A stretch of DNA of 64,000 nucleotides, taken from contig JAKSVF010000001.1 of NCBI GenBank assembly GCA_024408235.1, positions 29,417-93,416 on the forward strand, written 5' to 3'. The DNA comes from Bacilli bacterium (GTDB lineage Bacteria > Bacillota_I > Bacilli_A > RFN20 > CAG-826). How positions within the stretch are numbered: the first letter of the stretch is position 1; every line of letters starts with the position of its first letter. Below the pieces are notes generated by a model, which was given only the letters and a program-made list of their open reading frames with translations, did not search any database and was not told where the DNA came from. Positions 52,483-64,000 of this stretch are shown piece after piece. Made by a program: the position numbers and the translations under genes.

Positions 52483-53484
52483 ATGGAGAATTTAAAAGAA
52501 CGTGTAACGATTTACCAGGTTGCTCAAGCTGCAGGAGTATCTTTAGCAACAGTATCTCGCGTTATTAACAAGCAGGGCAACGTAACTGAAGCTACGAGAA
52601 CGAAGGTTGAGGAGACAATCAAGCGTTTAGGATATAAGCCTTCAGGCTTAGCTCAGGCTCTTGCTACAAACAGAACAACAAACATCGGTATCGTCATTCC
52701 TAGCGCTAACTATGTTTATATCTCAAGCATGTTGAGCGGTGTCTCTGAGGTCGCTAAGGAAAAAGGGTTTGTTCTTACATTATTTACAACAGGTCATTCA
52801 AGAGAAGATGCAATTGCGATGATTGAAAAGGTCATCGTCTCACACGTAGACGGAGCAATTATCTTTGATGATGAACTTGATGAGGCAGATATCGAGAAGA
52901 TTAACTCCTATTCCGTCCCAACAATCGTTATCAATAAGAAAGTTGTTGGCGAAAGAACAGGATGCGTTAACTTCTCATATACGAACGCGCTCGCGAAGCT
53001 TGTTCAGTCATACTACGAAAACGGTGGCGACACTGAGATGACTTTCATCCATCTTCATAACTGTGGTAGATTGTTGAGCCACTGCGAAAGAAGATTCATT
53101 GCAGCTCACCAGGAAATCGGAAAGCCATATCACATCATGAATGTCGATGACTCTTACACAAGAACGTACCGTGATTTCACCAATTATTTCCAGAATCATA
53201 AAAAAGGCTATTACATCGCTTACCGCGACTCAATTGCAGCAGCCGTTGCAAATGCAGCAACCGATAGTGGACTAAGAATTCCAGAAGACATTCAGGTCGT
53301 TTCACTTGTCGGAACAAAATATGCGCATATCTTGAGACCTACATTAACATCAATCGATTTGGATTGGCAGGAAGTTGGCAAGAGATCGATGTACATGTTA
53401 ATTGATTTGATCAACAGAAACCTTGAAGAAAAGTCTTACAAGTTTGATGCAAATCTCGTCATCAGAAACTCAACAAAACACTAA
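52483..53484 (+). CDS. LacI-family transcriptional regulator
   Basis: The N-terminal HTH VTIYQVAQAAGVSLATVSRVIN is canonical LacI/GalR. It is followed by a periplasmic-binding-protein-like effector domain. Confidence 0.88.
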   Translation: MENLKERVTIYQVAQAAGVSLATVSRVINKQGNVTEATRTKVEETIKRLGYKPSGLAQALATNRTTNIGIVIPSANYVYISSMLSGVSEVAKEKGFVLTLFTTGHSREDAIAMIEKVIVSHVDGAIIFDDELDEADIEKINSYSVPTIVINKKVVGERTGCVNFSYTNALAKLVQSYYENGGDTEMTFIHLHNCGRLLSHCERRFIAAHQEIGKPYHIMNVDDSYTRTYRDFTNYFQNHKKGYYIAYRDSIAAAVANAATDSGLRIPEDIQVVSLVGTKYAHILRPTLTSIDLDWQEVGKRSMYMLIDLINRNLEEKSYKFDANLVIRNSTKH

Positions 53485-53612: not shown

Positions 53613-55133
53613 ATGGCTGAGCAAACAAAAACAGCGAAGACATCCGGAATCGGGATGAAAGACAAGCTTGGATACGCTTTCGGAGATGTTGGCTCCTTGA
53701 TGGTATTCGGACTTGTTAACACCTTCCTTCAAGTCTTCTACACCGAAACACTCGGTATAACACCAATCTTGGTCATGATTATCATGATCATCGCTCGTGT
53801 ATGGGACGCGATCAACGACCCTCTATGGGGAAGAATCGTCGACAAGGCGCCATGCAAGAGACCTGGAACAAGATATAAGAGATGGCTTGTTTATTTAGCC
53901 CTCCCTCTTGCTTTATCTTCCATCATCATGTTCTTGAATGTGAGAGGCATCTTTGGAGATAACCCTGCACTCACAGTAACATACGCAACCATTTCTTACA
54001 TTCTCTTCGGCATGCTATATACCGGAACAAATATTCCTTATGGCTCAATGGCTTCAGTCATTACAACAGATGATAAGGAAAGAAACGCATTATCAGTCTT
54101 CCGTTCGGTCGGTTCAACTCTCGGCGGATTTGGCCCTATGGCTTTAAGCTTTGTCTCATATGATAAGGTCCAGAAAGTCGTCGAAGGAGTGGCACAGTTC
54201 GATACTGATGGAAATCCAGTCATGGTATCTCAGTTAAATCCAACAAAACTCATCATTGGCGTTGCAATCTTAGCAGTGCTCTGCGTCGTATTCTCAATTC
54301 TCTGCGCAAAGTTCTCAACGGAGCGTGTTGTTACAGAACCATCTAGAGGAGAAACCAAGAAGAAAGGTGAAACCGCTAGAGTTCTCAAGAATCTTCTCAA
54401 GACCCGCTCATTTGTTGTCATCTCAATTGTCGGCATGCTTTTCTTAGCCGCTCAGATGTTCCAGACAACATACAACTCATACGTATTCATGAAATTCTTC
54501 GGCAGTGGTGGTCTTGCTGCTGTTACTCAGGTATGCCAGTACCTTCCAGTAGCAGTCGTCATGTTCCTTGCCGGGAAACTCGTCAAGAAATTTGGCCGTA
54601 AAGAAATCTGCGCTATCGGACTCTTATTTGTCGCTATCTCATTTGGTGTCTTAGCGATCATCCCAACTACAGTCGTTTCAAGAACAATCTTGATGTATCT
54701 CTTCTTCGTGTTCTCACTCTTAGGAGGTATTGGTAACTCCTTTATCTTCTTAATGATATGGGCTCTTGCTAATGACGCGATTGATGATTATTTCATCAAG
54801 TACAGAAGCCATGATGAAGGTACAGCATATTCAATCTTCTCTTTCATGAGAAAACTTGGCCAGACAATCGCAGCTATCATTGTCAACATCTCTCTTATCG
54901 CAATCGGATACGGAGCTGATGGAACAACCAACTTTGCTCCATCTGAAGCTCAGGCTACATCGATGTACTATCAGTCAATCATCATCCCTGCGGTTTTATC
55001 CCTTGCAATGTTCCTCTTACTCATGTTCCTATACCCTCTTGGAAAACAGGCTGTCTTAGACATGCAGGAGAAGAAGAACGCTATTTATGCGGAAGAAGCT
55101 TCAAATGTCGAAAATGAAGCCGTTAGCGAATAA
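53613..55133 (+). CDS. GPH-family (glycoside-pentoside-hexuronide:cation symporter, MelB-like) transporter
   Basis: 12-TM MFS-like protein with the GPH signature RVWDAINDPLWGRIVDK in loop 2-3. Confidence 0.85.
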   Translation: MAEQTKTAKTSGIGMKDKLGYAFGDVGSLMVFGLVNTFLQVFYTETLGITPILVMIIMIIARVWDAINDPLWGRIVDKAPCKRPGTRYKRWLVYLALPLALSSIIMFLNVRGIFGDNPALTVTYATISYILFGMLYTGTNIPYGSMASVITTDDKERNALSVFRSVGSTLGGFGPMALSFVSYDKVQKVVEGVAQFDTDGNPVMVSQLNPTKLIIGVAILAVLCVVFSILCAKFSTERVVTEPSRGETKKKGETARVLKNLLKTRSFVVISIVGMLFLAAQMFQTTYNSYVFMKFFGSGGLAAVTQVCQYLPVAVVMFLAGKLVKKFGRKEICAIGLLFVAISFGVLAIIPTTVVSRTILMYLFFVFSLLGGIGNSFIFLMIWALANDAIDDYFIKYRSHDEGTAYSIFSFMRKLGQTIAAIIVNISLIAIGYGADGTTNFAPSEAQATSMYYQSIIIPAVLSLAMFLLLMFLYPLGKQAVLDMQEKKNAIYAEEASNVENEAVSE

Positions 55134-55135
55134 AA

Positions 55136-57097
55136 ATGAATAAGCAGCAGCTTGACTCACTTTTCATTTCCTCAATCGAAGATGGGGGAATGCGCATTTC
55201 TCTAGCCCAGGGTAAAGCTAAATACAAAATGAGTCGTGGTTCATTCACGACAAAAGACCATATATTTGATAAGCACAACCTCAAGTTCGTTAATAAAGAG
55301 GGGGACAACTTCCTCTTTAGCGACGGCAAGGTTAACTGTGTCATGTCCTTAGAAAAAGGAGAGAACATTAAACTCCGTTTTAAGGCTGACCCAAAATACA
55401 ATCGCTTCATTTTGAAGATCCCTGCATTTGAGAATGAACACATATATGGATGCGGTGAGCAGTATACACACCTTGATCTCAAGGGGAATAAAGTTAAAAT
55501 CTGGGTTTCAGAACACCAACAAGTAATGAAGATCGCCAAGAAGTTCTTAAGAGAGAAACTCTTTGGTGTAAATCCTGATTACAAAGCCCCATACAAGGCT
55601 CACCAAACCTATTATTCTTCACCAGGCTTTATGTCCAGTGAAAACTATTTTGTCTACTGCCATGAAGACGCTTATGGACAAATCGATTTTGAAAAGAACG
55701 AGACTCTAATTAAATTCCGTCAAGTTCCTCAATCGATATCCATACTTACAGGGGATAATCCAATCGATCTTGTTAAGAAAATTACAAAGCTCGTTAATAT
55801 CCAGCCTAAGCTTCCTGACTTTGTGGGTGAAGGCGCAATAATTGCCACCCAAGGCGGAAGCGATGTTATGCTTGAGAAATACGAGGCCTTAAAAGCTAAA
55901 GGCGGAAAAGTATCTGCAATCTGGTGTCAGGACTGGTCTGGACAGATAGTTACAGAATTTGGCTCTCAGGTCTATTGGAACTGGGAAGTTGATAACAATC
56001 TCTATCATGATTTGAAGGAGATCATTGTCCGCTTAAATAATGAGGGAGTTAAATTCCTTGGGTACATCAATACATTCCTAAAAGAAGACACCCCTTTATA
56101 TAAATATGCGGTAGAGCACGATTATATCGTCAAGAAAAAAGACGGTACACCTTACCTCATTCAGTCTACAACATTTAACGCTGGAATAGTTGATCTCACT
56201 TTCCCTGAAGCATATGAATGGTATAAGGGAATCATCAAAACAAACATGATAGGACTTGGCTTATCTGGATGGATGGCTGACTTTGGTGAGTATCTTCCAA
56301 CAGACTCAGTTGTCCATGGGGGCGATCCTGAAAAGCTTCATAACAAATGGCCAACGCTTTGGGCTAAATGCAACTATGACGCCATTAAAGAGTGCGACAT
56401 GGAGGGCAAGATATTTATCTTCTCTCGCGCTGCATATGGTCATACAGTTCAGTATACGAACTCAATGTGGAATGGTGATCAGCACGTTGATTACTCCGAT
56501 GAATATGGGCTTGGTTCAGTCATCCCTGCGACATTATCAATGGCATGCAGCGGAGTTGGCGTGAACCACAGTGATATCGGCGGATACACGACGGTACTTC
56601 ACATGAAGAGAGACGCAGAATTATTTAGAAGATGGTCTGAGATGAATATCTTTACGCCAGTCTTCCGTTGTCACGAAGGAAATAGGCCAAAGGTCAACGT
56701 TCAGTTCGACAGCGAAGAAGTGGTTGATGAATTTATAAAGAACAGCGATATATTTGCCGCCTTAAAACCATATAGAGATGACGTTCTTAAGGAATATTAT
56801 GAGGATGGCATCCCTTGCAATAGACCTCTCTTCTTCCATTTTGATGAAGATGAGTGTTATACGAATCAAAGAGAATTCATGTTTGGAAGCGAACTGGTCG
56901 TCGCTCCTGTCATGCGTAAAAACGTCACCAAGTTGAAAGTCTATTTGCCTAAAGGCGAGTGGATTGGTCTATTTGATGGCAAGACCTACGAAAGTGGTCA
57001 CATTGAAGTCGAGGCTCCTTTAGGAACGATTCCTGCCTTCTATTTAAAGGGAAGTGTTCACGAGAATCTCTTTAGAGATCTTATAAAGGAAAAATAA
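55136..57097 (+). CDS. GH31 glycoside hydrolase of the YihQ (sulfoquinovosidase)-like clade
   Basis: Nucleophile motif SGWMADFGEY (DFGE-type) and acid/base motif MWNGDQH. The region WCQDWSGQ...SQVYWNW resembles the YihQ substrate pocket, but a Gln sits where the sulfonate-binding Arg would be expected. Confidence 0.7.
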   Translation: MNKQQLDSLFISSIEDGGMRISLAQGKAKYKMSRGSFTTKDHIFDKHNLKFVNKEGDNFLFSDGKVNCVMSLEKGENIKLRFKADPKYNRFILKIPAFENEHIYGCGEQYTHLDLKGNKVKIWVSEHQQVMKIAKKFLREKLFGVNPDYKAPYKAHQTYYSSPGFMSSENYFVYCHEDAYGQIDFEKNETLIKFRQVPQSISILTGDNPIDLVKKITKLVNIQPKLPDFVGEGAIIATQGGSDVMLEKYEALKAKGGKVSAIWCQDWSGQIVTEFGSQVYWNWEVDNNLYHDLKEIIVRLNNEGVKFLGYINTFLKEDTPLYKYAVEHDYIVKKKDGTPYLIQSTTFNAGIVDLTFPEAYEWYKGIIKTNMIGLGLSGWMADFGEYLPTDSVVHGGDPEKLHNKWPTLWAKCNYDAIKECDMEGKIFIFSRAAYGHTVQYTNSMWNGDQHVDYSDEYGLGSVIPATLSMACSGVGVNHSDIGGYTTVLHMKRDAELFRRWSEMNIFTPVFRCHEGNRPKVNVQFDSEEVVDEFIKNSDIFAALKPYRDDVLKEYYEDGIPCNRPLFFHFDEDECYTNQREFMFGSELVVAPVMRKNVTKLKVYLPKGEWIGLFDGKTYESGHIEVEAPLGTIPAFYLKGSVHENLFRDLIKEK

Positions 57098-57098
57098 A

Positions 57099-57779
57099 AT
57101 GAAATACTATTTAGATTCAGCAAAGATCGATGAGATCGATTATGCATACAAATATTTGAAGATTGATGGAGTTACCACCAACCCTAAACACATCCAGAAC
57201 AGCGGAAAGCCATTTTTAACCGCGATTAAAGACATTGCGAATTGGCTTGAAGAGAACCATCTCCAAGGCAAGGATGTCTTCCCTGTCTCGGTCGAGATTA
57301 ATCCTCATTTGGACAACCATCTTGAGATGATTGAAGAAGCAAAAAAGATAGCGGCTATATCGGAGAACTTTGTCATAAAGATTCCATGCAACGTTGAAGG
57401 TTGTAAAGCTGCAAAGCTTTTGGAAGACCAAGGCATCAGAACAAACGTAACATTGGTCTTCTCTCCATCTCAAGCTATTCAGGCTGGAAGAATCGGTGCT
57501 ATGTTCGTTTCTCCATTCATCGGATGGAAAGAGTCTTCTGGTGACGATGGACTTAACTACTTACATCAGATTTCAAACATCTATAAGGAGAAGAACTATA
57601 AGACAGAAATCATCTGTGCTGCAGTTCGTTCCGGCAAGCAGATTGCTGAATGTACGGAGATGGGCGCTGATATCATCACAGCAGGACTCTCTGTTTATGA
57701 AGATTCGATCACAGATCCATGGACCGATTTAGGCCTTAAGAGATTCTGTGACGCTTGGGATAACACCGAAGGTAACTAA
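57099..57779 (+). CDS. Short (TalC/FSA-subfamily) transaldolase; candidate 6-deoxy-6-sulfofructose transaldolase
   Basis: GVTTNP motif and Schiff-base Lys in VIKIP. MFVSPFIGW has Phe (transaldolase-type) where FSA aldolases carry the catalytic Tyr. The Arg of the usual SPFVGR is replaced by Trp. Confidence 0.7.
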   Translation: MKYYLDSAKIDEIDYAYKYLKIDGVTTNPKHIQNSGKPFLTAIKDIANWLEENHLQGKDVFPVSVEINPHLDNHLEMIEEAKKIAAISENFVIKIPCNVEGCKAAKLLEDQGIRTNVTLVFSPSQAIQAGRIGAMFVSPFIGWKESSGDDGLNYLHQISNIYKEKNYKTEIICAAVRSGKQIAECTEMGADIITAGLSVYEDSITDPWTDLGLKRFCDAWDNTEGN

Positions 57780-57780
57780 G

Positions 57781-58617
57781 ATGAAAGTTGGTTTTATTGG
57801 ACTTGGCATAATGGGAATGCCAATGGCCACTAATGTTTCTAGAAAATACGATTTAATTGGATATGATGTCATAGCAAAGGAAGCGCCTTTTGCTATTGCT
57901 AGTTCCATAAAGGAAGTTGTAGAGAATTGCGATGTAATCATCTCAATGGTCCCAAAAAATGAACATGTGCAGTCCGTGTATAGCGAGGCGATGCCATTTA
58001 TCAGAAAAGGACAGACTTTCATAGAAATGTCTACGATTTCGCCATCAGTATCTTCCAAGATTGCTCAAGAAGTTGAGAGCAAAGGAGCGGATATGCTCGA
58101 TTGCCCAGTCGTAAAGAGTCAACCAGCCGCAATTAGCGGTACACTTGGCATTTATGTTGGTGGAAAGAAGGATGTCTTTGAATCTGTAAAAGATGTGTTG
58201 TCCTGTATGGGATGCAACATCATATACATGGGCGGACACGGTGCCGGATTAACAATGAAGATTCTTCATAATGCGTTGGTCGGCCAGATTCAAAATGGTG
58301 TCAACGAGGTGATGTCTATCGCTTCAAAATTAGGAATCGATTTGAATGATTTTGTAAAAGCCATTTCCTATGGCGGGGGACAAAACTTCTACATGGATGG
58401 CAAGGCTAAGAACATCATCTCTCAGGACTACCCAACAGCGTTCTCTATCGCGAACATGCATAAGGATGCTCATTTAGCAAAAGACTTACTAAAAGAAAAC
58501 GATCTCTCATATCCGGGAATCGAAAACACCGCTCGAATCTATGACGAAGCGATGGAAATGGGTTTAGGACGTGAAGATTTCTCGGCAACGTACAAGGTTG
58601 TCAACGGAGGTAAATAA
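57781..58617 (+). CDS. NAD(P)-dependent beta-hydroxyacid dehydrogenase (3-hydroxyisobutyrate / tartronate-semialdehyde reductase family; YihU-like candidate sulfolactaldehyde reductase)
   Basis: Rossmann N-terminus MKVGFIGLGIMGMPMA and a catalytic Lys region typical of the HIBADH family. The ATG at 57781 follows the upstream stop directly. Confidence 0.75.
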   Translation: MKVGFIGLGIMGMPMATNVSRKYDLIGYDVIAKEAPFAIASSIKEVVENCDVIISMVPKNEHVQSVYSEAMPFIRKGQTFIEMSTISPSVSSKIAQEVESKGADMLDCPVVKSQPAAISGTLGIYVGGKKDVFESVKDVLSCMGCNIIYMGGHGAGLTMKILHNALVGQIQNGVNEVMSIASKLGIDLNDFVKAISYGGGQNFYMDGKAKNIISQDYPTAFSIANMHKDAHLAKDLLKENDLSYPGIENTARIYDEAMEMGLGREDFSATYKVVNGGK

Positions 58618-58619
58618 AT

Positions 58620-59936
58620 ATGAGAAAAGCTAGAATCGGAGTTTGCTGTTTAACAAGAAAAACATATGACTATCAAACGGCATACGCACTATATCAGGAA
58701 AGAACCGCTGAATTAGTAAAGGACACATCTGTTGACTATTGTGTTTATGGCGAAAACGTTATTGAACCGGAAGATGCTGAAAAGGTTATCCACTATTTTG
58801 AACAGCAGGAAATAGACGCTGTCGTCATCGTCTCGGCCACATTCCATCTTGGACATCTCGCTCTCATGATCAACGACGCCTTGAAGAAACCTATCCTCCT
58901 TTGGGGCTTTGATGAACTCCCATATAACGGTGGAAAGATCAGATTGAATGCAGTGTGCGGCGTTAACTTAAATGCTTCTAACCTTTATAAGGCAGGGGTT
59001 GATAATTACTGTGTCACAATCGGCGATACAATCGATGAGAACTGGGTAAAAGCAATCAAAGCTATGGTCGCTATCCACACAACAAAAATTGGAATTGTCG
59101 GTTATCGCGCACAGGGATTCTTCAATGTCGGAGTTGACGAACTTAACCTCTATAAGAACACAGGTTTGCTCGTCAATCATTATGAGATTAGTGACTTATT
59201 CAAAAAACAGGCTGACGATGAAACCGTTGCTCGTGAAATTGAATGCGTAAAGAGAGAGTGGAATGTAGAAGGCATTAATGATAAGCAAGTTGAATTAGTG
59301 GCTAGACTTGTCGCTTCAACTGAGCTTTTCTTAAAAGAAAAAGGAGTCGATGCTCTTGCAATTCGCTGCTGGCCTGAATTCGCTGCAACCTACGGAATCT
59401 CTCCTTGCGCAATGATGTCTATTCTTCAATCCAGAGGAATTCTTTTGGCATGCGAAGGAGATGTTGAAGCCCTTGTTTCGATGATTGCCGTTAAGGCTTT
59501 AGGCGAACCAACACCATTTATGGCGGATTTATCTCAAGTTAACTTTAAAGATAATTACGCTCTTCTCTGGCATTGTGGCGTTGCGCCATGCAATCTTTGG
59601 GACAAGAAGTGCGTAAGATCTCTTGATACATACTTTGCAGGCGGAAAAGGGGTTACCGCAGGATTCGTCCTCAAAGATGGCGACTTCTCAATTTTCCGTA
59701 TCGACACAGCTAGAGGCAAAACAAGAATATTCTATGAAGAAGGCACAGCTGTTCCGATGGAAAAACTCCTCACAGGTACTTTCGCAAAAGTCCATTTCAA
59801 ACACGATGTCAAAGATGTTCTTGATGTTGTAGTTAATACGGGCGTTGCTCATCACGTCGTTATGGGCTATGTCCAATACGAACCGGTCATTAAGATTCTT
59901 GCTAAGTTGACTGGTTGGGAAATCATCAAGTGCTAA
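58620..59936 (+). CDS. Sugar aldose-ketose isomerase of the L-fucose/L-arabinose isomerase superfamily; candidate sulfoquinovose isomerase
   Basis: 438 aa. Putative metal/catalytic residues sit in ACEGDVEA, LWHCG and AHHVV contexts, with a FucI/AraA-like domain order. This is a family-level call. Confidence 0.55.
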   Translation: MRKARIGVCCLTRKTYDYQTAYALYQERTAELVKDTSVDYCVYGENVIEPEDAEKVIHYFEQQEIDAVVIVSATFHLGHLALMINDALKKPILLWGFDELPYNGGKIRLNAVCGVNLNASNLYKAGVDNYCVTIGDTIDENWVKAIKAMVAIHTTKIGIVGYRAQGFFNVGVDELNLYKNTGLLVNHYEISDLFKKQADDETVAREIECVKREWNVEGINDKQVELVARLVASTELFLKEKGVDALAIRCWPEFAATYGISPCAMMSILQSRGILLACEGDVEALVSMIAVKALGEPTPFMADLSQVNFKDNYALLWHCGVAPCNLWDKKCVRSLDTYFAGGKGVTAGFVLKDGDFSIFRIDTARGKTRIFYEEGTAVPMEKLLTGTFAKVHFKHDVKDVLDVVVNTGVAHHVVMGYVQYEPVIKILAKLTGWEIIKC

Positions 59937-59954: not shown

Positions 59955-60671
59955 GTGCCGGTGTGGTTGAGTAAGGCCCTATTTGTTGTAGTCGTCTTTT
60001 TAACAAACATTATCCAAGCGATAACTGGCTTTGCTGGCACTGTTCTTGCCATGCCTTTTTCCATTCAACTTGTTGGTAAGCCATATGCAAAACCGGTGTT
60101 GAATGCCATAGCATTGCTGGTCTGCATTATTGTTGTAGTACGCAACTTTAAGAAGATTGACTGGAAATGCTTATTAGAGATTATCGTTTTCATGGGTATC
60201 GGTATGGTTGCCGGTTTCTTCCTTGAAAAGTATCTCTACTCGAAATGGTTCCTAAAAATATATGGAATCATTATCGTGTTCATCGCTATTTATTACTTCT
60301 TTGTGGATAATCCAATTAAACTTCCTAAACCCATTGGATGGGTGATCATGTTCCTTGCGGGAATTATCCACATGATATTTGTCTCAGGCGGCCCGCTTCT
60401 AATCATTGCTGCCAAGAATAAAATCAAGGATAAAGAAACCTTCAGAGCGACTTTGTCAATGGTATGGGTGATACTCAACTCATCAATACTCGTCACTGAT
60501 GCGGTAGGCGGGAACTTCTCATTGGATCAACTTTGGATTCTCCTCATTATGATTCCAACAGTCGTTATTTCGATTCTTATCGGGAAGTTTGCCCTTAAGA
60601 AAATGTCTAACAACCTTTTCATGAAATTAACTTGTGTTCTCTTATTTATTTCTGGATTCCTAGTCATATGA
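59955..60671 (+). CDS. TauE/SafE (TSUP)-family anion exporter
   Basis: 7-8 TM helices, about 240 aa, and a Gly-rich VSGGPLLIIA motif typical of DUF81/TauE. Confidence 0.7.
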   Translation: MPVWLSKALFVVVVFLTNIIQAITGFAGTVLAMPFSIQLVGKPYAKPVLNAIALLVCIIVVVRNFKKIDWKCLLEIIVFMGIGMVAGFFLEKYLYSKWFLKIYGIIIVFIAIYYFFVDNPIKLPKPIGWVIMFLAGIIHMIFVSGGPLLIIAAKNKIKDKETFRATLSMVWVILNSSILVTDAVGGNFSLDQLWILLIMIPTVVISILIGKFALKKMSNNLFMKLTCVLLFISGFLVI

Positions 60672-60676
60672 TCATA

Positions 60677-61654
60677 ATGAATAACCTCCAAAAATCTATA
60701 ATCAGAATCCTTCAGCAAAAGAAGGAATGCTCAAGAAAAGAGCTCTCTTCTTTGCTGTCGGTTACGCCAGCTGCAATCACCCTTGCAACAGGACCTCTTT
60801 TAGATGGCGGATTCATCGAACAATTGCATGAAGTATCTAGAGAAAAAGCAGGCCGAAAAGAGGTTATGTTATCGGTCAATGCAGATTCATTTTTCGCCAT
60901 TGGAATCGACGTAAATGATGATGGCATTTCACTTGTTAAACTTAATGGTCGTCTTGAAGTTACTCAATTAATTGAGTTATCTACTATTAAAGAACTAATC
61001 GTTGCTTTAGATAGGTTCGATTTATCTCTATGCATCGGCATCTCTATTTCACTTAAATCGTTCTATAGCGTTGAGCATATAAATAACGATGTTCAGACTC
61101 TCCTTAACCATTTAAAAACCATCAACGAAAATGTTACGCTGATCAACAATATTGCTGCCCTTGCTTACGCTTACAAAATGCGTAATCCTCAGGATGAGAG
61201 TTTCGTCGTTATTAAATATGGACCAGGCGTTGGCTCTGCATGTTTTATCAAGAACCATTTGCTCCAGTCTCCTTCAAACCCAACATATGAACTCGGAAAG
61301 GTTTTCCTTAATGATCGCCTGGTTACTATTGAAGAGGCTATCGGATATAAGTCGATCAGCGATTCTAAGCCTGAGGCTCTTGCTCTTTTGAGAACGGATG
61401 AAAACGTTAGAGCGCGAGTGCTGAAAGTTCTCGGCTTTACCATCCATAACGTGAACACTCTTTTGCAATTGGATAAGGTCCTTGTTTCTGGAGACATCTT
61501 CAAAGACGATAGAATCTTCAATGAGCTGTTGGAGAAAATACCAATGACTGATGAGGAGAAGGCAAAAGTAACAAGAATGAGTGACTATGCTGAATTGAAT
61601 AAAGCCAAATCCGCACTGACCGCTCAGTACTTATTCTTTAACGGTGATAAGTAA
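60677..61654 (+). CDS. ROK-like transcriptional regulator (N-terminal winged HTH plus ASKHA sugar-kinase fold; no Cys/His zinc motif evident)
   Basis: wHTH RILQQKKECSRKELSSLLSVTPAAITLATGPL, followed by the AIGIDVND start of an actin-like fold. Confidence 0.5.
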   Translation: MNNLQKSIIRILQQKKECSRKELSSLLSVTPAAITLATGPLLDGGFIEQLHEVSREKAGRKEVMLSVNADSFFAIGIDVNDDGISLVKLNGRLEVTQLIELSTIKELIVALDRFDLSLCIGISISLKSFYSVEHINNDVQTLLNHLKTINENVTLINNIAALAYAYKMRNPQDESFVVIKYGPGVGSACFIKNHLLQSPSNPTYELGKVFLNDRLVTIEEAIGYKSISDSKPEALALLRTDENVRARVLKVLGFTIHNVNTLLQLDKVLVSGDIFKDDRIFNELLEKIPMTDEEKAKVTRMSDYAELNKAKSALTAQYLFFNGDK

Positions 61655-61684: not shown

Positions 61685-63349
61685 ATGGAACACACTAATT
61701 GGTACAAGGATGCTGTTATCTACCAGATTTATCCACGTTCATTTTGCGACAGGAATGGAGATGGAGTAGGTGATATACCTGGCATTATTTCAAAACTAGA
61801 TTACTTAAAGGACCTCGGAGTGAACTGCGTATGGCTTTCTCCTGTTTACGATTCGCCACAAGAGGACAACGGTTACGATATCGCTAATTACCGTGATATC
61901 TATAAGCCTTTCGGAACTCTTAAGGACTTTACTATGATGCTCGATGAAATGCATAAAAGGGGCATCCGTTTAGTCATGGATTTGGTCGTTAATCACACAT
62001 CCAGCGAACATGAGTGGTTCAAGAGCGCTATTTCGGACAAGAATTCGCCATACCGTGACTATTACATAATCAGAAAAGGTAAAGGCAAAAATGGAAAGAA
62101 GCCACCTAATAACTGGTCCGGATTCTTTGCTGAATCAACTTGGGAAAGGATTGGCGAGAGTGATGAATGGTATTTACATCTCTTCGCAAAAGGCCAGCCT
62201 GACCTCAACTGGGAAAACCCAAAGGTAAGAGAGGAAGTCAAAGATATCTTGAGATATTGGTTAGATATGGGTGTTGATGGCTTTAGATGCGATGTCATAA
62301 CCCTCATTTCCAAGAAACAGGATTTCAAGTCTAGATTCCCGACCCTCGCTTTATGCGGTAAAGACGCTTTTGTAATGGGTCCAAGACTTCATGAATACCT
62401 ACATGACTTATATAAAGACGTCTATGCGAACTATGATTGCATGACAGTCGGAGAAACGGTTCTTTCAAGTCTCGACGATGCCATTAGTCTTGTATCGCCG
62501 GAAAGAGAAGAACTTGATATGGTGTTCAACTTTGACCATACGGATGTCGATAACCATATGGGCGTTAAGTGGCTTTATAGAAAATTCAAACTCACGAACC
62601 TCAAAAAGGCGGTCCGCAAATGGCAAATCGGTTTAAAAGGCAAGGGCTGGAACTCTCTATTCATCGAAAATCATGACCAAAGAAGGTCAGTAGGGCGTTT
62701 CGGAACTGACGACAAGGAATTCCGCGTCATCTCAAGCAAAATGCTCTCAGCGACCTATTTCTTGCTTCAGGGAACGCCATTCATTTACCAGGGTCAAGAA
62801 CTTGGAATGACAAATGGAGATTTCGAATCAATCGATGATGTTGTAGATGTGGAGGCCCATAACGTTTACAAGCTAGGGCAGTCACTCCCAATACTTAAAC
62901 CGTTCCTTAAAAAGACATTAATGTCTTGCAACAGAGATAATGCAAGAACGCCTGTTCAGTGGGATGACTCACGCTATGCAGGATTCTCAGAAGCCAAGCC
63001 TTGGCTAAAGGTGAATAAGAATAAGAGTTTCATCAATGCAGAGGCAGCGATAAAAGATCCTGACTCAACTTACAATTTCTTCAAGAAGATAATTGAATTC
63101 AGAAAAGGAAATGATGTTATTAAAAACGGTGATTACATCGACCTGCTCCCTAGAAACAATTCCGTCTATGCCTATGTTAGAAAACTGGCTGATAAAGAAG
63201 TGGTTGTTATATCTAATTTCACGAATAAGAGACTCTCTTGCAAAATCCTTAAGGATTATAAGAAATACAATATTGTTTTGACAAATTATGTCGAAAAAGA
63301 AGATGATTATCTCAAACCATATGAGACAAGAGTCTTAATTAATTATTAA
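61685..63349 (+). CDS. GH13 alpha-glucosidase (oligo-1,6-glucosidase / GH13_31-like)
   Basis: N-terminus WYKDAVIYQIYPRSFCDRNGDGVGD, plus DLVVNHTS, GFRCDV (nucleophile Asp), GETV/E acid-base and NHD motifs. Confidence 0.9.
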   Translation: MEHTNWYKDAVIYQIYPRSFCDRNGDGVGDIPGIISKLDYLKDLGVNCVWLSPVYDSPQEDNGYDIANYRDIYKPFGTLKDFTMMLDEMHKRGIRLVMDLVVNHTSSEHEWFKSAISDKNSPYRDYYIIRKGKGKNGKKPPNNWSGFFAESTWERIGESDEWYLHLFAKGQPDLNWENPKVREEVKDILRYWLDMGVDGFRCDVITLISKKQDFKSRFPTLALCGKDAFVMGPRLHEYLHDLYKDVYANYDCMTVGETVLSSLDDAISLVSPEREELDMVFNFDHTDVDNHMGVKWLYRKFKLTNLKKAVRKWQIGLKGKGWNSLFIENHDQRRSVGRFGTDDKEFRVISSKMLSATYFLLQGTPFIYQGQELGMTNGDFESIDDVVDVEAHNVYKLGQSLPILKPFLKKTLMSCNRDNARTPVQWDDSRYAGFSEAKPWLKVNKNKSFINAEAAIKDPDSTYNFFKKIIEFRKGNDVIKNGDYIDLLPRNNSVYAYVRKLADKEVVVISNFTNKRLSCKILKDYKKYNIVLTNYVEKEDDYLKPYETRVLINY

Positions 63350-63372
63350 TGTAGCCAATAGGAGGTACTTTT

Positions 63373-64000
63373 ATGGCATTACATGATACATATGATGGAA
63401 GCTTGGTTCCTAAAAGAACAAAAGGCTTCTACTGCGGTATTGCTCCGTTTAGAGACGCATGCTACACGCTGGTCTCGATGTTCCTTATCGCATTCATCCA
63501 GTACTCTGGCGTTCTTACTAGAGGACTTGGCGCGGGGGCAACTCAGGCCGAGAAGACAGCGATGTTCGTCGCTGCGTATGGCGTTATTTCCGCATTAGTA
63601 ATCGGATATCGAATCTTCGACGCTTTAAATGATCCATTCATGGGCGTCATCATCGAGAAGATTCACTTCAAATCCGGCAAATATAAACCATGGATTCTCC
63701 TTGGCGGCTTAACTAACACAATCGTTGTTCTCGCTCTATTCTGCGGACCAACAATCTTCCCATGGCTTTCAGGCTGGGCATATGTAGCCTGGTTCGCTGT
63801 TTTCTATCTCCTTTGGGGACTGACATTCACAATGAACGACATCGCTTATTGGGGTATGCTTCCATCCCTAACTTCAGAAGAAAAGCAGAGAACACAGATC
63901 ACAACTCTCATGTCCATCTGCTGTTCGCTTGGACAATTCCTTGTAGCAGGACTTGCTCCAATCCTTGCTTCAAGCATGGGCTATGGAATCTATGTTCCGA
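63373..64000 (+). CDS. Second GPH-family glycoside symporter, 3'-partial (runs off the window)
   Basis: Frame translated manually: MALHDTYDGSLVPKRTKGFY...GYRIFDALNDPFMGVIIEK...NDIAYWGMLPSLT, which are the GPH signatures. An AGGAGG RBS precedes it. It is absent from the ORF track because there is no stop in the window. Confidence 0.8.
   Translation, partial: MALHDTYDGSLVPKRTKGFYCGIAPFRDACYTLVSMFLIAFIQYSGVLTRGLGAGATQAEKTAMFVAAYGVISALVIGYRIFDALNDPFMGVIIEKIHFKSGKYKPWILLGGLTNTIVVLALFCGPTIFPWLSGWAYVAWFAVFYLLWGLTFTMNDIAYWGMLPSLTSEEKQRTQITTLMSICCSLGQFLVAGLAPILASSMGYGIYVP

Follow-up and report, generated by a model that had tools for sequence, protein, structure and literature searches.

Identification of a probable SF transaldolase gene

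The gene at positions 57099–57779 on the forward strand of the window (the whole 64,000-nt stretch of DNA analyzed here) encodes, with about 90% probability, an ortholog of the 6-deoxy-6-sulfofructose (SF) transaldolase (SftT/SqvA, BmSF-TAL). This enzyme is the hallmark of sulfoquinovose (SQ) catabolism by the sulfo-SFT (sulfo-TAL) pathway. We based this assignment on the sequence, the fold, the conserved motifs and the neighboring genes, and carried the chemistry and the substrate over from characterized homologs; the activity itself, SF + glyceraldehyde-3-P (GAP) or erythrose-4-P (E4P) giving 3-sulfolactaldehyde (SLA) + fructose-6-P (F6P) or sedoheptulose-7-P (S7P), was shown just for Bacillus enzymes (Frommeyer 2020, PMC7491151). 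The Arg-to-Trp change that the original prediction had singled out in this protein is the published sulfonate-pocket signature of the SF transaldolase family and is already known, and the protein is an ordinary, unremarkable member of that characterized family.

The open reading frame (ORF) has the extent originally given, from an ATG start to a TAA stop (226 aa); it begins 2 nt past the stop codon of the preceding GH31 gene and has an AAGGA ribosome-binding site on its 5' side. Pfam placed the protein, hereafter window SftT, in the TAL_FSA family (PF00923, E = 9e-43), and all of the motifs quoted for it were found, namely VIKIP (K94), MFVSPF (S138 and F140) and FIGWKESSGDDG (W143). The family match, K94 and F140 bear out the earlier description of a transaldolase-type protein with a Schiff-base Lys in VIKIP and a Phe in MFVSPF. 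By alignment, the catalytic triad is formed by Asp6 (57114–57116), Glu66 (57294–57296) and the Schiff-base lysine Lys94 (57378–57380), which correspond to D6, E61 and K89 of BmSF-TAL, where K89 carries the Schiff base with SF (PMC12890257, PMC11659671). N116 and S138 match the sugar-orienting N111 and S133, and Phe140 (57516–57518) is the transferase-type residue, Tyr being the aldolase-type one. Trp143 (codon TGG, 57525–57527) equals W138 of BmSF-TAL, whose role is described in PMC11659671, and stands at the phosphate-binding Arg of the classical SPFVGR motif. Ala175-Val176-Arg177 (57621–57629) supply the 'A' and the 'R' of the W-A-R motif, which we placed at A170 and R172 of BmSF-TAL, where classical enzymes have Ser-x-Arg. 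Thus window SftT has W143/A175/R177 and not the Arg-Ser-Arg phosphate pocket of classical transaldolase (EC 2.2.1.2). Lys30 (57186–57188) is aligned with R30 of BmSF-TAL and with Ser or Thr of classical enzymes; this position is clade-specific yet variable (R/K/N). A search for a second Tal paralog within the window found none. The public record of the protein (from a Bacilli MAG) says just 'transaldolase', and it could be annotated as SF transaldolase (SftT).

Closest structural relatives

The best PDB sequence match of window SftT was BmSF-TAL of Bacillus/Priestia megaterium (8bc3/8bc4/8bc2; E = 8.8e-84), with 134 identical residues and a global identity of ~60%. The HMMER alignment pairs FVSPFVGWKENSGDD with FVSPFIGWKESSGDDG, so that the two proteins have the same Trp; the characterized SF transaldolase, in which a retained Arg would have spoken against the original prediction, has Trp (W138). 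An AlphaFold2 monomer model of window SftT, computed from a 60-sequence alignment, had a mean pLDDT of 97.2 and the TIM-barrel fold of the TAL_FSA family. When the model was compared with the PDB by Foldseek, the eight top matches were all BmSF-TAL entries (8c4i and 8bc3 among them; TM 0.94–0.98, rmsd 1.1–1.3 Å), including the SF Schiff-base complex, and the classical transaldolases followed behind them with TM 0.83–0.90 among the matches listed.

BmSF-TAL, whose oligomer is a decamer built as a dimer of pentamers (PMC11659671), shares with window SftT the catalytic and sugar-orienting residues, the sulfonate residues W138/A170/R172 and the same kind of gene cluster, and differs from it as follows: First, residue 30 is Arg in BmSF-TAL and Lys in window SftT. 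Second, five residues are inserted behind residue 48 in window SftT, which is 226 aa long, compared with 218–221 aa for BmSF-TAL. Third, the aerobic Bacillus clusters use an SLA dehydrogenase, whereas the window cluster uses a reductase (SftR, yielding dihydroxypropanesulfonate, DHPS). At last, a DUF4867 gene is missing from the window cluster.

A second relative is transaldolase F1 (IMG 2956859250) of Faecalicatena sp. DSM22707, an anaerobic gut Firmicute, which is the SF transaldolase proposed by Borusak et al. 2024 (PMC11659671). Its D6, K94, E66 and S138 are numbered as in window SftT, implying the same 226-aa length class, and it also has W-A-R. The Faecalicatena pathway is, however, a bifurcated transketolase/transaldolase pathway, and no transketolase genes adjoin SftT in the window. 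The classical small (subfamily 5) transaldolases, i.e. Thermotoga maritima TM0295 (1vpx), Thermoplasma acidophilum TacTal (3s0c) and B. subtilis Tal (3r8r), share with window SftT the TIM barrel (TM 0.84–0.90), the Asp-Glu-Lys triad, the Asn/Ser/Phe residues and the second Arg. They differ in being only 35–41% identical, in using F6P/S7P and not SF as donor, and in having Arg, Ser, Ser/Thr and Asp at the positions of Trp143, Ala175, residue 30 and Ala219, respectively. E. coli FSA (1l6w) belongs to the same family and has a similar length, yet matched with an E value of only ~1e-19; FSA-type sequences have Gln and Tyr at the Glu66 and Phe140 positions and keep Arg at the Trp143 position.

Conservation of the W-A-R motif

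In the HMMER alignments W143 falls on the SPFVGR Arg of Thermotoga 1vpx and T. acidophilum 6ys0/3s0c, in agreement with the substitution originally described. The phosphate pocket of TacTal consists of R135/S167/R169. The 120 nearest homologs in a 5.8-billion-protein collection all read SPF[V/I/L/W]GW (41 of them exactly SPFIGW), and W143-A175-R177 is invariant both in these 120 and in 80 of 80 genomic relatives. In addition, we searched 1.84 billion cluster representatives with window SftT, using HMMER with its filters switched off. Full-length W-type representatives scored 361 and 284 bits; a single outlier came next at 178 bits, and classical ones scored at most 137 bits with no more than 41% identity. 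Position 143 is W in 126 of 126 clade members versus R in 51 of 51 full-length classical-type representatives, and the latter have S at position 175 (49/51) and mostly R at position 177. In the joint alignment the W-type group reads [K/R]30-W143-A175-R177 and the classical enzymes [S/T]-R-S-R. The same comparison of 126 W-type with 51 R-type sequences yielded ~30 further clade-specific positions, including H31, N68-P69-H70, Q128, K144, A175, K180 and A219. The D-E-K-S-F residues are kept in all 80 related loci, and neither the residue at position 30 nor the type of GH31 makes any difference there to W-A-R or to the catalytic and sugar-orienting residues, all of which are invariant.

Six independent contigs, one of them from the NCBI MAG GCA_024500545.1 ('Bacilli bacterium'), encode the identical SftT protein, a finding that rules out a sequencing error (TGG versus CGG) at Trp143; with the clade-wide Trp, the residue is neither chance nor error. 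The suggestion that Trp could serve as a marker separating SF transaldolases from housekeeping Tal therefore holds (126/126 versus 51/51), and it had already been published (PMC11659671). What our survey adds is the invariance of W-A-R across ~200 relatives, and the clade-specific H31, N68-P69-H70, K144, K180 and A219 could sharpen a family model.

A distant TAL_FSA protein encoded outside the window (P0126; L086:546-1235; 229 aa, 39% identity) has Trp at the 143 position, in ATFISW, but has Ala at the Asn116 and Ser138 positions and Ser and Lys instead of Ala175 and Arg177; its gene adjoins a TPP-enzyme-like fragment and one further fragment. Since P0126 has the Trp without W-A-R, Trp alone is insufficient as a marker, and the full W-A-R in its SPF context is needed.

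Two more positions deserve mention. Residue 30 is R in 35, K in 27 and N in 18 of the 80 relatives, and residue 219 (57753–57755) is Ala in the SF clade versus Asp in 44 of 51 classical-type representatives. By the numbering in PDB titles, positions 30 and 219 seem to be the counterparts of T30/D211, the pair that carries mutations in the T. acidophilum entries 6yre, 6yrt, 6ys0 and 6yrm; if so, the SF clade rebuilt that contact too.

Published account of the tryptophan

Borusak et al. 2024, who refer to Snow et al. 2023, name a 'postulated sulfonate-orienting WAR motif' that includes W138, and list for BmSF-TAL the triad D6/K89/E61 and the sugar-orienting N111/S133 (PMC11659671). Counting along BmSF-TAL, W138 is the Trp of SPFVGW and thus the same residue that had been flagged in window SftT. 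The same authors used W138R to argue that a paralog is no SF transaldolase (PMC11659671); with both the motif and this usage in print, the Trp-for-Arg distinction is already published. The Schiff base of SF on K89 seen by cryo-EM is confirmed in a 2026 review (PMC12890257). The Trp of the SF transaldolase is not discussed in PMC11968277, PMC12890257, PMC10599462, PMC12133307 or PMC13219744, and our literature search found no account of an Arg-Trp-Arg/Trp138/Arg172 sulfonate triad for the transaldolase. The abstract of Snow et al. 2023 reportedly names an 'Arg-Trp-Arg sulfonate recognition triad'. We considered position 30 as the second Arg of this triad and make no claim, since the position varies among R, K and N in the 80 relatives.

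The original prediction went further and proposed that the phosphate-binding Arg is lost and that this fits SF as the donor. The donor part is favored by the same Trp in BmSF-TAL and by the SQ cluster context, but only one of the two Arg residues is lost, R177 being kept. With R177 retained and Ser replaced by Ala175, the pocket would not lose its charge but be adjusted to a mono-anionic sulfonate. Furthermore, both the acceptors (GAP/E4P) and the products (F6P/S7P) carry phosphate groups that should bind in this pocket, so that a degree of F6P/S7P activity would be compatible with an SF transaldolase (Frommeyer 2020, PMC7491151).

Gene cluster and genomic context

SftT is encoded together with an SQ isomerase, an SLA reductase, a sulfonate exporter and a sulfoquinovosidase in a cluster of co-directional, tightly packed genes, all on the forward strand. 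Upstream of the cluster lies a LacI-family regulator (52483–53484; Pfam LacI and Peripla_BP), followed by an sftA-like GPH/MFS_2 sugar:cation symporter (53613–55133; Pfam MFS_2, TIGR00792 gph) and an sftG/yihQ-like GH31 sulfoquinovosidase (55136–57097; PRK10426, 698 bits versus a cutoff of 553). SftT is followed by an sftR-like sulfolactaldehyde reductase of the beta-hydroxyacid dehydrogenase family (57781–58617; Pfam NAD_binding_2/11, NCBIfam matches including sulfolactaldehyde 3-reductase), a divergent sftI-type SQ isomerase of 438 aa (58620–59936), an sftE-like TauE/SafE sulfonate exporter (59955–60671; Pfam TauE, E = 2.6e-23) and a putative ROK/MarR-like regulator (60668–61654; 328-aa gene call, weak Pfam ROK/HTH matches) that was found in 27 of the 80 related loci. 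This is the sft composition published by Frommeyer 2020 (PMC7491151) in a reductive, DHPS-forming form, without the DUF4867 gene sftX. Within 8 kb of SftT, the 80 related loci (GTDB species genomes) encode SftR in 65, GH31 in 62, SftI in 55 and TauE in 41 cases. As a whole, the cluster can be labeled a reductive sulfo-SFT pathway, and one more uncultured gut/rumen-type Bacilli lineage would thereby join the known SQ degraders.

By SftT, Faecalibacillus sp. is the closest relative that has a name (88%); Erysipelotrichaceae and Bacilli MAGs come next, and many of these are from rumen or gut. An SftT 69–75% identical, with a Bacilli-like gene set, also occurs on five contigs (L009, L010, L012, L015 and L022) of 'cleanbin' assemblies labeled Bacteroidales, Bacteroides uniformis, Hallerella, Sodaliphilus and Prevotellaceae; these labels look like the result of mis-binning or of recent horizontal transfer.

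The GH31 protein matched the YihQ-type sulfoquinovosidases 5aed, 6pnr and 5ohy and the GH31 entry 8r56 in the PDB (E from 1e-132 to 1e-153). The sulfonate pocket of YihQ is Arg301-Trp304-Tyr508 (PMC8006165). The window protein keeps the equivalents of Trp304 and Tyr508 (W281 and Y484) and of Q262 and Q288 (Q239 and Q265), and has Gln278 (55967–55969) at the position of Arg301, which binds the sulfonate in E. coli YihQ. The Arg-to-Gln change noted earlier in this GH31 is thus real, and most related clusters share it: among 64 aligned SftT-linked GH31 proteins, 48 have Gln and 12 have Arg at this position, so that Gln is a lineage trait and not an exception. Arg is present in the three solved entries inspected (8r56 and YihQ 5aed/5aee). 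Judged from these alignments, Gln278 would be a widespread, apparently uncharacterized sulfonate-pocket variant and not an oddity of one genome.

Alternative readings

Several features stand against the SftT reading. The SftI homolog matches its NCBIfam model NF048012 over the full length (E = 6e-59) but scores 200 bits, far below the cutoff of 700; the GH31 has Gln at the Arg301 position; and there are Lys30, the 5-residue insertion, a reductase nearest to 3-hydroxyisobutyrate dehydrogenases and a cluster without DUF4867 (SftX). Lys30 of SftT and Gln278 of GH31 might together mark a gut/rumen Bacilli/Clostridia sub-lineage that uses a substrate other than sulfoquinovosyl glycerol/SQ, for instance another sulfosugar or aglycone, or recognizes the sulfonate without the Arg on which all solved sulfoquinovosidases rely. 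We regard this as very unlikely; the sulfonate motif of SftT is fully canonical.

A transaldolase of the SftT clade could also act on another 6-substituted ketose, either another sulfosugar or a non-sulfonated deoxy-ketose, and the variation at position 30, the partner GH31 without the YihQ R301 equivalent, and the divergence of SftI and SftR from the reference models would all fit such an enzyme. Yet the W-A-R, catalytic and sugar-orienting residues do not change with position 30 or GH31 type, the cluster also encodes a TauE sulfonate exporter, and most sft-type clusters have a Gln-type GH31, which leaves another ketose highly improbable as the substrate.

The names of the top NCBIfam matches, fructose-6-phosphate aldolase, and the close relation between the small decameric Tal and the FSA families would suggest an FSA-like aldolase that splits SF into dihydroxyacetone and SLA with no acceptor. 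However, every NCBIfam transaldolase or FSA model scores window SftT below its cutoff, and the hallmark Gln and Tyr of FSA/TalC/MipB, present in the FSA-type representative P0148 of the joint alignment and introduced in the T. acidophilum E60Q/F132Y variant (4xz9), are Glu66 and Phe140 here, which argues that transfer is favored over hydrolytic aldol cleavage. Together with D-E-K-S-F in every one of the 80 relatives and the requirement of characterized homologs for a GAP or E4P acceptor (Frommeyer 2020, PMC7491151), this makes an acceptor-free aldolase scarcely credible. Equally hard to credit is a housekeeping pentose-phosphate transaldolase with a neutral Arg-to-Trp substitution: window SftT shares its Pfam family and its catalytic residues with classical small transaldolases, but the TIGR00875 (fsa_talC_mipB) score of 183.5 bits is under the cutoff of 245.95, the Trp never changes within a tight clade and varies together with 30 or more other clade-specific positions (among them K144, A175, H31 and N68-P69-H70), translational coupling ties the gene into an SQ cluster, and the nearest characterized enzyme is an SF transaldolase.

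Proposed pathway

As an SF transaldolase, window SftT would act at the center of the following route, modeled on the characterized homologs. SQ glycosides would enter via the GPH symporter and be hydrolyzed by the GH31 sulfoquinovosidase, and SftI would convert SQ to SF. Lys94 of SftT would bind C2 of SF as a Schiff base, Asp6 and Glu66 would serve as the acid/base residues, and cleavage between C3 and C4 would release SLA. The enzyme-bound dihydroxyacetone unit would pass to GAP or E4P, giving F6P or S7P, and Phe140 instead of Tyr may disfavor its hydrolytic release. Trp143, Ala175 and Arg177 would form the C6 sulfonate pocket in place of the classical Arg-Ser-Arg phosphate pocket. SftR would then convert SLA to DHPS, and the TauE protein would export the product.

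Neighboring genes

The best solved relatives of the reductase are 3-hydroxyisobutyrate dehydrogenases and not YihU. Its mechanically called ORF runs from GTG 57748, so that 32 nt are shared with sftT; the start is most likely ATG 57781, which has GAAGG 8 nt upstream and lies 2 nt past the SftT stop. In public gene calls this reductase is either 289 or 278 aa long.

For the SftI-like protein (58620–59936), a sequence search of the PDB gave no meaningful match, and the protein's only Pfam match was a weak one to the L-fucose isomerase C-terminal domain. The SftI homologs in the related loci fall into two classes, with 55–91% and ~25% identity, suggesting that sft clusters contain two isomerase lineages that diverged deeply.

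Downstream of the sft cluster, positions 61685–64000 (continuing in L001:14587-19823) hold a GH13 alpha-glucosidase-type gene, a second MFS_2 symporter and a GH36 melibiase. This block probably serves a separate alpha-glucoside/galactoside utilization that is unrelated to sulfoquinovose.
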